This document shows positions 5,960 to 52,678 of a stretch of DNA of 58,851 bases, one piece after another (position 1 is the stretch's first letter; every line of letters starts with the position of its first letter). Both the position numbers and the translations under genes were made by a program. Under the pieces are notes generated by a model. The model saw only the letters and a list, made by a program, of their open reading frames with translations, did no database searches and had not been told where the DNA came from. The stretch lies in the NCBI GenBank assembly GCA_002787695.1, contig PCXL01000011.1, positions 1 through 58,851 on the forward strand, given 5' to 3'. The DNA is from Candidatus Zambryskibacteria bacterium CG10_big_fil_rev_8_21_14_0_10_42_12. GTDB taxonomy: Bacteria; Patescibacteriota; Minisyncoccia; Phycocordibacterales; 1-14-0-10-42-12.

Positions 5960-6056
5960 AAACATATCTTAGTTACGAGATACTCGTCTCGACCTCATGA
6001 TAGCTTCGGCTATCCTTCGGTCTCCGACTCGATCTCTCACTGACAGATATGTGTTT
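5960..6056. repeat. Long imperfect hairpin in the murB/murA divergent spacer
   Basis: ACATATCT/AGATATGT outer stem, nested GAGAT/ATCTC and GACC/GGTC stems, apical GATAGC-TTCG-GCTATC. Confidence 0.55.
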
Positions 6057-46142: not shown

Positions 46143-46205
46143 TACAAGGGGCACCCTTGTAATTTTGTAAACCTTTATATTACCCCTACAAGGGTGCCCC
46201 TTGTA
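46143..46205. repeat. REP doublet (REPIN-like): two inverted copies
   Basis: TACAAGGGGCACCCTTGTA (46143-46161) is the reverse complement of TACAAGGGTGCCCCTTGTA (46187-46205). Confidence 0.85.
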
Positions 46206-46237
46206 GGGCTTTTATCTCATGATATGATTTGAATATT

Positions 46238-46885
46238 ATGCATGCGCGTGATTATAAGCAGTTTGCACCAAACGAGTTTTACCATATTTACAATCGCGGT
46301 GTTGGTAAAATGAATATTTTTCTAGACGATGAGGATTACAATTTTTTTCTTACTCGACTCAAAGAGAACTTGTTTCCTAGTAGCATAAGTATGTCTAATA
46401 AAATAAGGAGAAAACTTTTGCCGGCAGGCTCATTTGATTTGGTTTGTTATTGTTTGATGCCAAATCATTTTCATCTTTTGTTTTTTCAAAAGACAGAGGT
46501 GTCAATTAGTGCGTTAATGTTGAAAGTTATGACGGGGTATGTGATCTATTTCAATAAAAAATATGATCGCGTCGGCTCGCTATTTCAAGATCAATTCAAA
46601 GCGGTATGTGTAAAATCTGACGAACAACTTTTATGGCTTTCTGCATATATTCACACAAATCCATCAGTTGCGCAGCTAGTATCTGATGATATGCAATATG
46701 CGTGGAGTAGTCTGAGGGAGTATATAACAAAAGATAGGGGTATGTGTGTGACAGATCATATACTGCAGTCATATCGTTCTCCGGCATACTACAAAAAACT
46801 GATGATGGAGGCAAAGAAGGTTATTTATGGAAATAAGAAAGATAAGGCGAGCACATCAGCTTTAGGGGCAGTGTTTGATCTGTAA
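46238..46885 (+). CDS. REP-associated tyrosine transposase (RAYT, IS200/IS605 Y1 HUH family)
   Basis: FYHIYNRGV, IFLDDEDY, YCLMPNHFHLL (HUH), YFNKKY.R.G.LFQ, YIHTNP (catalytic Tyr), YAWSS..EY; flanked by REP palindromes. Confidence 0.92.
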   Translation: MHARDYKQFAPNEFYHIYNRGVGKMNIFLDDEDYNFFLTRLKENLFPSSISMSNKIRRKLLPAGSFDLVCYCLMPNHFHLLFFQKTEVSISALMLKVMTGYVIYFNKKYDRVGSLFQDQFKAVCVKSDEQLLWLSAYIHTNPSVAQLVSDDMQYAWSSLREYITKDRGMCVTDHILQSYRSPAYYKKLMMEAKKVIYGNKKDKASTSALGAVFDL

Positions 46886-46905
46886 CTTTGAGAGATATAC
46901 CAATT

Positions 46906-46924
46906 TACAAGGGTGCCCCTTGTA
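46906..46924 (+). repeat. REP-like palindrome downstream of RAYT
   Basis: TACAAGGGTGCCCCTTGTA followed by short TGTAAA repeats. Confidence 0.85.
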
Positions 46925-46984
46925 AACTTGTAAAGTGTAAAACAATATCAAAAAGACACCGCGTATACAGTGTCTTTTTGATAT

Positions 46985-47544: not shown

Positions 47545-49212
47545 ATGGTAGAAAGAATAGGAAAATTATTTGCAAGCAAGGTTAGCAGTCTGCATACAGC
47601 GGCGTATATCATGGGTGCCTTTACCATCGTATCTTCTCTGTTGGCACTTGTTCGCGATAGGCTACTCGCATCTTCATTTGGTGCGGGTTCAGAGCTTGAT
47701 ATGTACTATGCTGCATTTCGTATTCCCGATCTATTGTTTGTATCTGTTGGGTCATTAGTTTCTGTCTCAGTCTTGATCCCGCTATTGGCAAAACGAGAAA
47801 AGGAAGCGGTAGACGGGGGGGAAGCTTTTGAACTTTCTAAGGCGACTACATTTTTCGCAGTGATTATCAGTGTGTCATCAGTACTACTATTTGTTGTGTT
47901 GCCATATGTTGTTCCAGTTGTTTTTATCGGTTTTGATATGGAACTACAAGGTGAAGTAGTCCGTCTCTCCCGATGGCTACTGCTTTCTCCGATTATCCTC
48001 GGTTTCTCAAATGTCTTCGGATCTGTTACTCAATTGCAAAATAGATTTGTGTTGTATGCGTTGAGTCCGGTGCTATACAATGTTGGAATAATTATCGGTA
48101 TCATTTTTCTTGCACCACTTTCCGGTATTACCGGAGTAGTGTACGGAGTAATTATCGGTGCACTGCTACACCTGTTACCGCAAGCTCTATATGTCTACAA
48201 AGTAAAATTGTGGCCTCGAATCGTGCGTATTTCATGGGTATATGCAAAATCACTTGCTGCTCTTTCTGCGTCACGCACCATTGCACTTTCTCTATCTCAT
48301 CTTGTCTTACTGCTACTTGTTGCGATCGCGAGTTCTTTAGCGGCTGGGACGATTGCCGTCTTTACATTTTCATATAATTTACAGTCTGTATTTGTGGGCG
48401 TTATTGGTGTGAGCTATTCACTCGCTGCTTTTTCAGCACTCTCTAAATTGGTAGCCGATAACGATTGGGATGAATACAAAAGAGAATTAACATCCTCCTT
48501 TAGGCAGTTGCTTTTTTGGTCAATTCCAGCAGCCGTACTCTTGATCATCCTTCGAGCTCAGATTGTCCGTACAGTTCTTGGTGGAGGAATGTTTAGTTGG
48601 GCAGACACTCGTTTGACTGCAGCAGCGCTTGCTATATTTGCAATTGCAACTATTTTCCAAAGCGCGAGCCTCCTTTTTACCAGAGCGTTTTATGCGCAGG
48701 GCGAAACAAAAAAACCGTTGATCGCTCATGTCACAGGTTCTGGTATTGCCATTATTCTCGGTGTCTTGTTTTTACGTATGAGTCCAGAGGGTTTTTTGGA
48801 GACAATGTCATATCTACTAAAGATAACTGATCTCGATCCGCACGTGTTACTTCTGCCAACTGCATTTGCTATTGGCTCATTGGTAACCGTGATATTGCTT
48901 GCTATCCCACTTTTTGTAAAAAAACTTGTTGGTGTATCCCTCCGTTTTGTAGCAGAAGTTGTGGGTGGCAGTCTTACCATGGGTGCAGTTGCATATATTG
49001 GTCTTATAATTTTTGAACCACTACTCGGAACCGATACGCTTGTTGGTATTTTCTCACAAGGGCTTTTTGCAGGACTATTGGGAATAATGAGTGGTATAGG
49101 TTTTCTGTGGGTGATTGGCAATACAGATGTTCGAGATGCAATATTCTTCCTAACACCAAAACGAGAAAAAGTAGACTTGCCAGCAACTGATGTGAGCGAG
49201 ATGGCGCCTTAG
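47545..49212 (+). CDS. murJ: Lipid II flippase MurJ (MviN)
   Basis: LALVRDRLLAS.FGAG..LD.Y.AAFRIPD, TRAFYA....KKP; multi-TM. Confidence 0.93.
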   Translation: MVERIGKLFASKVSSLHTAAYIMGAFTIVSSLLALVRDRLLASSFGAGSELDMYYAAFRIPDLLFVSVGSLVSVSVLIPLLAKREKEAVDGGEAFELSKATTFFAVIISVSSVLLFVVLPYVVPVVFIGFDMELQGEVVRLSRWLLLSPIILGFSNVFGSVTQLQNRFVLYALSPVLYNVGIIIGIIFLAPLSGITGVVYGVIIGALLHLLPQALYVYKVKLWPRIVRISWVYAKSLAALSASRTIALSLSHLVLLLLVAIASSLAAGTIAVFTFSYNLQSVFVGVIGVSYSLAAFSALSKLVADNDWDEYKRELTSSFRQLLFWSIPAAVLLIILRAQIVRTVLGGGMFSWADTRLTAAALAIFAIATIFQSASLLFTRAFYAQGETKKPLIAHVTGSGIAIILGVLFLRMSPEGFLETMSYLLKITDLDPHVLLLPTAFAIGSLVTVILLAIPLFVKKLVGVSLRFVAEVVGGSLTMGAVAYIGLIIFEPLLGTDTLVGIFSQGLFAGLLGIMSGIGFLWVIGNTDVRDAIFFLTPKREKVDLPATDVSEMAP

Positions 49213-51574: not shown

Positions 51575-51579
51575 TTTGG

Positions 51580-51743
51580 TGTCAGGAGGCAGGCTCGGTC
51601 ACAACTCTCCTGTTTCGATAAACCGAGCACTTACAATGTAAGTGCTCGGTAAATCTTCACAACGGAGGTCGCGACCCCACCTCGCGCACCTCTCGACAAG
51701 CTCGAGGGCTTCGCGCGCTCCGGCTTTCGAACCTTTTCCTGAC
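51580..51743 (-). ncRNA. tRNA-3'-mimic three-way-junction element downstream of tRNA-Phe
   Basis: Closed by GTCAGGA..GGTTCG / CGAGC.TGCCTCCTGACA (copy of tRNA-Phe 3' end); shares three motifs with 52471-52628. Confidence 0.55.
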
Positions 51744-51793
51744 GTGAAATAAAAGTCGCGGAGCACTTTCGTACTCCGTTCCTTTATTTCATG

Positions 51794-51866
51794 TGTCAGG
51801 AGGCGGGCTCGAACCGCCGACCCTTCGCTCTTCAGGCGAATGCTCTACCAACTGAGCTATCCTGAC
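51794..51866 (-). tRNA. tRNA-Phe(GAA)
   Basis: Acceptor GTCAGGA/TCCTGAC; anticodon arm TTCGC-CTGAAGA-GCGAA; T arm GGCGG-TTCGAGC-CCGCC. Confidence 0.96.
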
Positions 51867-51885
51867 ATATTTATTTCTTAAGAAA

Positions 51886-51953
51886 CTCTACCAACTGACC
51901 CGCCTGCCATCGCCTGCGGCTTCAGCCAATGGCGGGCAGGGCTATCCTGACAT
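51886..51953 (-). pseudogene. Duplicated 5' fragment (nt 1-24) of tRNA-Phe interrupted by a 42-bp hairpin
   Basis: CTCTACCAACTGA (51886-51898) and GCTATCCTGACAT (51941-51953) match the tRNA exactly; GC-rich palindrome at 51899-51940 between them. Confidence 0.75.
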
Positions 51954-52238
51954 TTATTCTTCACTCTTGAAGAAATCTAAGAAATTTTGAAGATTACCTT
52001 GAAACTCCTCGTCTACTGCTGTGAATCGTGCATCTACATCGTTATAGAATTGCTGTGCGCCCTCAATATATGGTTGGATAAAATAATATGCTCCAATCGC
52101 TGCCCCCGCCAAGATGAGCCAGTAGACCACACGCATAATATTAGCAATGCGCTGGCTACGGCGCATTTTGTGAAGCATCGTGTTGTTTTCTCGTGTCAGA
52201 GAAAGCAGTTCTTGCACTTTTCTATCCATCGGATCCAC
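51954..52238 (-). CDS. Small single-TM hypothetical protein
   Basis: 94 aa; GTG start 7 nt after TGcTACATT; TM VVYWLILAGAAIGAYYFI. Confidence 0.8.
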   Translation of the reverse strand: MDPMDRKVQELLSLTRENNTMLHKMRRSQRIANIMRVVYWLILAGAAIGAYYFIQPYIEGAQQFYNDVDARFTAVDEEFQGNLQNFLDFFKSEE

Positions 52239-52383
52239 GACTTCAAATGTAGCAAAAATGGGGTCTTTTTACAATATTCGTGATAGAGTATTTTCGTCCG
52301 GCGCCCTTGCATGAGAATTCCCATGCAAGGTAAGCCATTCGGACATAATACAGAAATAAATTACTGTATTATGATCCTCATTT

Positions 52384-52455
52384 GCCCTTGTAGTTCAATG
52401 GATAGAACAGCGCACTCCTAACGCGCCGATTCAGGTTCGACTCCTGACGAGGGCA
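52384..52455 (+). tRNA. tRNA-Arg(CCT)
   Basis: Acceptor GCCCTTG/CGAGGGC; D arm GTTC/GAAC; anticodon loop CTCCTAA (A-C mismatch at the stem base); T arm TCAGG-TTCGACT-CCTGA. Confidence 0.93.
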
Positions 52456-52470
52456 CACTTAAACTACTTT

Positions 52471-52628
52471 TTAAGTGTGCCCTCGTAAAAACTGTATTGA
52501 TACAGTTTTGTCAGGAGTCGAAAGACGGAACTGTGTTTTGTGAGCACACAAAACAGTCGAGTCGGGGTCGAGAAATTTTATGAGTGACGACGAGTAAAAT
52601 ATTCGTGATCGATTCCTGGCAAGGGCAC
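52471..52628 (+). ncRNA. tRNA-3'-mimic three-way-junction element downstream of tRNA-Arg
   Basis: Inverted copy of the tRNA 3' end (52471-52486, 52510-52522) and direct copy TCGATTCCTGGCAAGGGCAC (52609-52628) enclose motifs shared with the tRNA-Phe element. Confidence 0.55.
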
Positions 52629-52636
52629 AGAAATTA

Positions 52637-52678
52637 AACCAAAAATTGTCTGGAATTAATTCCAGACAATTTTTGGTT
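52637..52678. terminator. Perfect 42-bp palindrome, bidirectional terminator
   Basis: AACCAAAAATTGTCTGGAATT/AATTCCAGACAATTTTTGGTT, abutting the hsp20 stop. Confidence 0.7.

Follow-up and report, generated by a model that had tools for sequence, protein, structure and literature searches.

Structured trailers of tRNA genes in Patescibacteria as probable gene-less, site-specific integrative mini-elements

Genomic islands and prophages that reside in transfer RNA (tRNA) or transfer-messenger RNA (tmRNA) genes, including those that tyrosine integrases place at the T-loop sublocation, the tycheposon-type islands and the integrase-less satellites, cross over inside the gene, carry a replacement for its 3' part and leave the original 3' part behind as a distal direct repeat. 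Their presence varies between relatives, and they can stack at the same tRNA. The present study concerns two trailers of tRNA genes that share all of these traits and that lie in a 58,851-nucleotide (nt) stretch of DNA, here called the window (contig PCXL01000011.1 of assembly GCA_002787695.1, positions 1 to 58,851, forward strand), from Candidatus Zambryskibacteria bacterium CG10_big_fil_rev_8_21_14_0_10_42_12, a member of the Candidate Phyla Radiation (CPR; Patescibacteria). We use T1 for nt 56-74 of the proximal tRNA, T' for an antisense arm and T2 for a distal direct copy of nt 56-74. Collectively, our analyses make it likely that such trailers are a gene-less, site-specific integrative mini-element of the CPR, ~110-215 nt long, with T1-spacer-T'-core as its unit and a folded single-stranded circle as its probable moving form.

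Read in the direction of the tRNA, the same parts follow tRNA-Phe and tRNA-Arg in the same order: a hairpin, T', the core and T2. In both copies the core itself runs TCGAAAG-N-CGGA-R-C, hairpin 1, GAG-NN-GGGGTCG-M-GA, hairpin 2 and GTGA-Y-C, so that the shared layout claimed by the original prediction is confirmed for both tRNAs at the coordinates listed below. The two trailers fold alike, into a three-way junction (z = -11.0 and -5.7 against shuffles), and the short motifs taken alone are without significance inside the window. A strict 21-base core pattern served as the seed for searches of metagenome contigs and viral contigs, and a covariance model, R1, was built from the listed pattern copies and run on the window and the listed metagenome loci. 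The parts of the two window copies are as follows.

51793-51866, minus strand: tRNA-Phe(GAA), called by ARAGORN and Rfam (70.3 bits)
51793-51811, minus strand: T1 of the Phe copy, the last 19 nt (nt 56-74), which completes tRNA-Phe; placed by the repeat boundaries
51744-51792, minus strand: spacer hairpin of the Phe copy, terminator-like; placed by the fold, with a terminator-like site at 51759-51778
51726-51743, minus strand: Phe T', GTCAGGAAAAGGTTCGAA, a partly decayed antisense of the tRNA's 3' end; placed by sequence
51598-51730, minus strand: three-way-junction core of the Phe copy, TCGAAAGCCGGAGC, hairpin 1, GAGGTGGGGTCGCGA, a long hairpin 2 and GTGAC; placed by the fold and by R1 (match 51588-51738, 59.5 bits, E = 4.4e-15)
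51579-51597, minus strand (51577-51597 including CA): T2 of the Phe copy, displaced nt 56-74, 18/19 identical; placed by sequence
52384-52456, plus strand: tRNA-Arg(CCT), called by ARAGORN and Rfam (61.9 bits)
52438-52456, plus strand: T1 of the Arg copy; placed by the repeat boundaries
52457-52477, plus strand: spacer hairpin of the Arg copy; placed by folds
52478-52522, plus strand: T' of the Arg copy, in two halves around a side hairpin; placed by sequence, position test and single-stranded DNA (ssDNA) fold
52478-52485, plus strand: acceptor half of the Arg T', TGCCCTCG; placed by sequence
52486-52509, plus strand: side hairpin of the Arg T'; placed by sequence and fold
52510-52522, plus strand: T-arm half of the Arg T', GTCAGGAGTCGAA; placed by sequence
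52518-52609, plus strand: three-way-junction core of the Arg copy; placed by R1 (match 52510-52619, 84 bits, E = 3.5e-22)
52610-52628, plus strand: T2 of the Arg copy, displaced nt 56-74, 16/19 identical; placed by sequence
52637-52678, unstranded: strong two-way terminator hairpin with a 19-bp stem, directly 3' of the Arg T2; placed by terminator scan and probably the site where tRNA-Arg and the convergent Hsp20 gene originally terminated

The CA that follows the Phe T2 completes a CCA (T2 ends ACA-CCA, T1 ACA-CAT). The Arg T' is a perfect complement of T1 and an imperfect one of T2, the T1:T' stem is uninterrupted in the ssDNA fold of this copy, and the acceptor strand of the Arg T2, CAAGGGC, pairs perfectly with the tRNA 5' strand GCCCTTG.

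The further copies that the original prediction had anticipated exist in number. At least 120 metagenome contigs matched the strict core pattern; in 102 of the 124 matches listed, a tRNA or tmRNA on the same strand ends less than 300 nt upstream (usually ~60 nt), and these upstream genes represent every amino-acid identity as well as tmRNA. The viral contigs gave two matches, both in GC-rich coding DNA without tRNAs and judged to be chance. R1 recognizes 153 copies in the listed metagenome loci and 155 overall, of which 124 stand directly behind a tRNA or tmRNA of any identity; the rest lie mostly at contig edges, or behind tmRNAs and group I intron tRNAs missed by ARAGORN. Three loci (L075, L087 and L102) carry tRNA genes split by a group I intron (Rfam Intron_gpI, 76-89 bits), each with an R1 copy behind it.

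The core is held together by covariation. The consensus fold of 49 non-redundant copies has 25 pairs, 16 of them with double-sided changes; paired cells amount to 95.4%, and covariation scores 0.614; shuffles reach 72.5% and 0.181, and slid partners give a covariation score no higher than 0.117. The inner stem, said by the original prediction to covary between the two window copies, does so throughout: the middle pair of G-N-C / G-N'-C takes all four Watson-Crick types. A G.U pair in the third helix is invariant (49/49 copies), and GTGACCGA, which was left out of the search pattern, is near-invariant across the family. Since wobble pairs are frequent and A.C pairs rare, and since the wobbles are confined to the tRNA-sense strand, folding is assigned to that strand. 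The outer closing helix owes its covariation to the target, and no selection there can be read from it. Family-wide, the tips of hairpin 2, and often those of hairpin 1, share a recurring GAGCGAAGCGAA / GAGCGACGGCGA / GAGTGACGACGAG motif, and the side hairpin within T' often has a CTGC loop. GCGAAGC forms an unusually stable DNA mini-hairpin. The tip motifs and CTGC loops could be protein-binding or nucleation sites.

At gathering score Rfam matched only tRNA and rRNA in the window, and a permissive search (E <= 10) gave no family for the element, only chance-level microRNA and small nucleolar RNA (snoRNA) matches. The Arg copy had no blastn match in annotated phage and plasmid collections. 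Full-text searches of the literature yielded no description of such an element; the nearest reports there are the tRNA-island papers, for example the ocean "novel integrative elements" preprint. The arms track the adjacent tRNA in every case across the family. Thus the proposal of a tRNA-targeted, non-autonomous element family is supported, as neither chance nor a catalogued RNA accounts for the copies; the family is apparently undescribed and common in the CPR. In five loci (L016, L021, L031, L124 and L170), tRNA trailers hold other small structured elements with different cores, such as one with GGTGTACTG followed by a hairpin, and these likewise close with a copy of the tRNA end. Their occurrence at the same tRNA position suggests several sister families that share an insertion logic and stack with the R1 family.

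The boundaries of the repeats are sharp. In most of the 58 copies with a well-kept T2, the repeat is unbroken from C56 for 19 nt, or for 21 nt where the gene encodes CCA. Identity between T1 and T2 is 0.00 at nt 54-55 and 1.00 at nt 56, stays at or above 0.91 at each position to nt 73, is 0.91 at nt 74 and drops to ~0.6 beyond, and the joint always falls directly after T54-T55. Complementarity between T' and T1 begins two bases earlier: it is 0.00 at nt 53, 1.00 at nt 54-58 and at least 0.96 to nt 62. It follows from this start at nt 54 that TCGAA, at the head of the core, is complementary to the universal TTCGA of the T-loop. A palindromic spacer links T1 to T', and the three together make a single long hairpin; in many copies, the Arg copy included, a side hairpin parts the acceptor half of T' from its T-arm half. 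T' extends into flanking genomic sequence, and it has a TGG only if the gene encodes CCA. The idea of a primer-binding site or retroelement was rejected, as it is the gene, rather than the mature tRNA, that T' and T2 copy.

Once in place, the arms decay apart. In 76 copies, T1, T2 and T' were compared at nt 56-65. Where T1 and T2 disagree, T' is complementary to T1 in 42 cases, to T2 in one and to neither in seven; T' and T2 have diverged from T1 about equally, and neither compensates for changes in the other. This independent drift indicates that the T'/T2 helix is not maintained after insertion, and the functional closing helix between T' and T2 that the original prediction had drawn is thus not kept by selection. 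A CCA follows T2 alone in eight copies, the Phe copy of the window among them, and T1 alone in none. Copies that are stacked, partial or truncated in T2 are common in the family, tandem arrays (L005, L013 and L110) repeat the T-spacer-T'-core unit, and cores that stand behind different tRNAs of the same genome are 81-92% identical.

One locus, L088, identifies the unit that moves. It holds a normal copy behind tRNA-Gly and a second copy inside a tRNA-Pro gene, with a 92% identical core, the same spacer and a Gly-type T'. The joint of the second copy (GATAGCCCGAG-TTCGATTCTC-CCATCCCGCAC) follows tRNA-Pro up to 13 nt common to both T-arms and then tRNA-Gly; its T1 is Gly-type, and the T2 behind its core matches the end of tRNA-Pro at 18/18 positions and runs on into the Pro flank. 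From this mis-insertion the moving unit is T1-spacer-T'-core and T2 is the target's own end. A target-site duplication is thereby ruled out as the source of the repeat, as is the copying of T' from the target during insertion, and, together with the CCA asymmetry, the locus marks T2 as the displaced original 3' end of the gene. Two other models fall with the same locus: an element of spacer-T'-core-T2 inserted after nt 74, and a target-site duplication, which L088 rules out by its Gly-type T1 and Pro-type T2. The original prediction held that ordinary duplication of an attachment (att) site could not explain the trailers; for T2 this does not stand, since att-type integration predicts it, as L088 and the CCA asymmetry show, and for the antisense arm and the folded core it does. 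An intact tRNA-Pro plus 85 nt precedes the broken tRNA-Pro (L088:1450-1835), with a repeat that begins at nt ~44 (GATAGCCCGAG...); the upstream gene looks like a rescue by a second, different att-type event. Some copies are altered at nt 57-61 in T2 and not in T1, which fits an exchange region that spans the T-loop.

Orthologous tRNA genes provide the empty state. Because valine-tRNA synthetase (ValS) is encoded 1.3 kb from tRNA-Arg, the best 80 ValS-anchored loci of a genome collection gave a sample blind to the element. All 80 are metagenome-assembled genomes of Patescibacteria, the closest at 67% ValS identity (Paceibacteria/Parcubacteria), and among their 181 tRNA or tmRNA genes about 18 (~10%) are occupied, in 13 loci; of the 22 R1 copies in the sample, 20 stand behind tRNAs. 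The order valS, tRNA-Phe(GAA), tRNA-Arg(CCT) is kept, as compared over ~27 CPR genomes. Behind tRNA-Phe stands an R1 copy in the window and in three other loci (L126, L141 and L167); L124 and L170 have another kind of small element there, and ~20 others have none. For tRNA-Arg(CCT), the occupied loci are the window, L128 and L167 (by eye, with no R1 match), and all others are empty. Only the element-bearing orthologs have a distal copy of the tRNA end. The empty alleles that had been foreseen thus exist, and the vacancy of the valS-linked tRNAs in ~20 relatives shows the element to be an insertion.

The joints, L088 and the tandem arrays together indicate one course of events, in which each unit consists of T1, the spacer hairpin, T' (antisense to nt 54-74) and a core of ~95 nt that ends in GTGAC, and recombines with a tRNA or tmRNA gene in the T-loop, between nt 55 and 56, bringing a replacement end. 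Upon insertion T1 completes the target gene, while the gene's own 3' end, T2, is shifted downstream of the core together with its CCA and terminator where these are present; T' and T2 then decay separately. The mobile form is most likely a single-stranded circle, of DNA more likely than of RNA, folded as a rod in which the T1:T' duplex would mimic a double-stranded tRNA gene end beside the junction, and the exchange would be carried out by a recombinase supplied in trans. Three considerations favour a single-stranded intermediate: a double-stranded circle of ~150 bp is too stiff to take part in recombination; T', for which a duplex att site has no use, forms a perfect stem with T1 in a single strand; and the core is under strand-specific pairing constraints. 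Folded in silico as ssDNA, the postulated unit forms a long T1:T' stem that starts at the joint (z = -10.7 and -7.5).

Several points weigh against this reading. The assembled contigs of the 2017 DNA sequencing runs, which hold mostly tRNAs of other organisms and break at repeats, showed no circular junction, excision product or usable empty-site joint, a search for RNA runs gave none, and no recombinase is linked to the family. The mis-insertion in L088 is a single example. The folded circle leaves the rewriting of T1 and T' to fit a new tRNA without explanation, and ssDNA and RNA are inseparable by sequence alone. A short terminator-like spacer hairpin precedes T' in many copies; it would limit co-transcription and is not decisive for DNA. 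L112, a contig of 3,200 nt whose ends overlap exactly over 127 nt, is either a circle of 3,073 bp or a k-mer artefact. Besides a single R1 copy, its arms decayed, it has a DUF3800 protein and small, uncharacterized open reading frames (ORFs), with no tRNA and no recombinase.

A bolder form of the same idea would make the units a new class: protein-gene-free single-stranded circles of ~130-200 nt that carry their own folded attachment site, use T' as a rewritable guide and have a three-way junction that recruits a universal host enzyme or is catalytic. We regard this as doubtful. A separate proposal, which we hold to be unlikely, is a guide-programmed element: T' would be a true guide of 19-21 nt, comparable to IS110 bridge RNAs or the guide sequences of IS608, and would choose its target by pairing with the tRNA-sense strand, while the junction would be the scaffold of a transposase or recombinase, or catalytic. 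T' directly adjoins the conserved scaffold and starts exactly at nt 54, two bases before the joint; one scaffold carries arms for all tRNA identities and for tmRNA, near-identical cores bear different arms within one genome, and the structure is strand-specific, all of which speak for a guide. However, the L088 unit entered tRNA-Pro with a T' match of only ~10-13 nt and without rewriting T', so full-length pairing is not needed; T' pairs equally well with its own T1, which the folded attachment site already explains; and no partner enzyme was found, nor any likeness to bridge-RNA architecture or to Rfam ribozymes.

The trailers could instead be scars of larger islands, that is, attL plus attR remnants of recombinase-encoding tRNA islands after deletion, either immobile or mobilizable in cis. 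In L040 the T2 behind the core matches, at 18/18 positions, a tRNA-Tyr 5.3 kb upstream, and the 5.3-kb segment between that tRNA-Tyr and the spacer-T'-core-T2 module holds a large serine recombinase of 509 amino acids (aa), a 245-nt module and a Schlafen/AlbA_2 ATPase. The 3' end of the recombinase gene runs into the tRNA end, and its last 150 nt are repeated upstream, inverted and perfect. The 245-nt module occurs as two inverted copies in L040 and abuts the spacer-T'-core of the mini-element in L030, L038 and L045 too. Homologs of the recombinase number 2,541 at E <= 1e-20, and seven contexts were examined: in six, the gene abuts the 3' end of a tRNA (Tyr, Lys, Arg-TCT, Val-CAC, Leu-TAG or Pro) in antisense orientation, and ARAGORN called no tRNA in the seventh (L212/L213). 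Against scars stand the ~150 short copies to 4 long ones, the lack of an R1 core near each of the 7 further recombinase homologs (11 places examined), the constant architecture and covarying core, not expected from independent deletions, and L088 and the tandem arrays, in which the short form itself moves; L040 is explained as well by later insertions into the same hot spot. We therefore consider scars quite unlikely. The autonomous partner that the original prediction sought has a candidate in the L040 recombinase; the large serine recombinase family may be the partner of the mini-elements, with which it shares a niche and, at one composite locus (L040), a link. As a group, these CPR recombinases (L040:4068-5832 and L203-L213) are ~510-540 aa long and usually run antisense into a tRNA 3' end. 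The closest subfamily has a perfect inverted copy (150-209 nt) of its own C-terminal coding part upstream, adjoining the conserved 245-nt module, which ends in a pseudo tRNA end (GGTTCG...GCAC).

A host-serving structured RNA, a 3' trailer co-transcribed with the tRNA for 3' processing or quality control, or as a tRNA mimic or sponge, is highly improbable: the strong, sense-strand-specific fold, RNA-like motifs (a GAAA junction, a tandem G.A internal loop, the invariant G.U), the Arg copy's want of a strong terminator before the core with a strong one after T2, and the tRNA-like acceptor/T-arm shape that T' and T2 can draw would suit it, but most orthologous tRNAs lack the element, occupancy in the element-blind loci is about a tenth, T' and T2 show no compensatory change, truncated, stacked and partial copies are common, and T', as an antisense of the working tRNA end, would hinder maturation rather than aid it. 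The original prediction's tRNA-mimic or processing RNA is likewise disfavoured by presence and absence at orthologs, arm decay, stacking and truncated copies, as is its decoy attachment site (attB), by the same presence and absence, the independent decay of the arms, tandem stacking and truncation.

Within the window, the genes around both copies encode MurJ, LepA, Hsp20, PrsW and ValS, the units contain no ORF, and no integrase is among the neighbours, so the earlier statement that none is present holds for this neighbourhood. The nearest recombinase-like gene, 5 kb off, is an IS200-like, RAYT-like Y1 transposase (46229-46885, Pfam Y1_Tnp) in a region (46143-46925) with flanking REP hairpins, TACAAGGGGCACCCTTGTA, for which no sequence relation to the tRNA elements was found. 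It has only one homolog in the 1.84 Mb of element-bearing loci, and a RAYT partner is without support on both counts; no insertion sequence (IS) that shares the element's ends turned up in those loci. Just upstream of tRNA-Phe (51886-51951, minus strand), 19 nt from the real gene, lies a second copy of its first 24 nt with a similar upstream flank, split after nt 11 by a 42-nt GC-rich hairpin (51899-51940) at which the source metagenome has raised contig depth and indel variants; this repeat may have arisen by duplication on the 5' side or be a scar left by some other element. Far from any tRNA, R1 matches weakly and in part (5974-6040, minus strand; 15 bits, E = 0.028); the match is a hairpin with only the G-N-C / GGA...GAG / hairpin-1 module, within a short inverted repeat (AAACACATATCT...AGATATGTTT). 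A 94-nt tRNA-Met that ARAGORN called at 48338-48431, inside the MurJ frame (47545-49212), was not called by Rfam and is probably a false positive.

If the folded-circle reading is true, these would be the smallest site-specific integrative elements known, gene-less entities that strike one exact phosphodiester of an essential gene class and repair the gene on landing. They are abundant in a vast section of the bacterial tree about which little is understood. They also have practical effects: assemblies are broken at tRNA genes, false tRNA fragments arise, and tRNA 3' flanks are changed, for instance by loss of an encoded CCA or replacement of a terminator. Two questions follow: by what route a single scaffold comes by sense and antisense copies that fit each new target, and what enzyme recognizes the folded junction. 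Their answer could reveal a new route to sequence-programmed DNA insertion. Were the units indeed a new class, CPR bacteria would have a naturally programmable insertion system specified by nucleic acid.

The known systems each share part of this design. In contrast to the tRNA islands with which we began, the element is 110-215 nt long and gene-less, lacks an integrase of its own and shares one core among all tRNA identities; no att site needs its antisense arm or its covarying three-way junction, and a double-stranded circle of its size is implausible. The integron attC site and the attP(+) site of CTX phage are imperfect palindromes of one strand that fold into a duplex recombination site, as T1:T' does in silico, and they too conserve structure over sequence, with the crossover at the hairpin base and a fold in one strand only. 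These sites, however, are served by IntI or XerCD and target attI or dif, whereas the element's duplex copies the end of a tRNA gene and its ssDNA intermediate is inferred. The IS200/IS605 family, its ORF-less derivatives and the REP/REPIN-RAYT systems are likewise small, folded ssDNAs with a fixed short sequence beside the insertion, their cleavage sites are read by base pairing and their non-autonomous copies are mobilized in trans. The element would resemble them in all this. Its G.U/G.T pairs are on the sense strand only and its joint always follows T54-T55, but it carries a copy of its target, as this family does not, so that a place among them could be argued either way; the IS200/IS605 guides have 4 nt. 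Bridge (seek) RNAs of IS110/IS1111 also set a structured non-coding scaffold next to target-complementary sequence that is reprogrammed between targets, but they lie inside an IS with a DEDD recombinase and have two internal loops with short split guides, where the element has no gene, one continuous arm and a three-way junction. Finally, the MITEs (miniature inverted-repeat transposable elements) of bacteria (Correia/NEMIS, RUP, BOX and the Rickettsia palindromic elements) are, like the element, short, ORF-less, multi-copy, hairpin-forming and placed in or beside genes. MITEs have terminal inverted repeats and duplicate their target site; the element's flanking copies, in contrast, differ in L088, its inverted repeat (T1...T') is one-sided, with the core end unpartnered, and its target is a class of genes.

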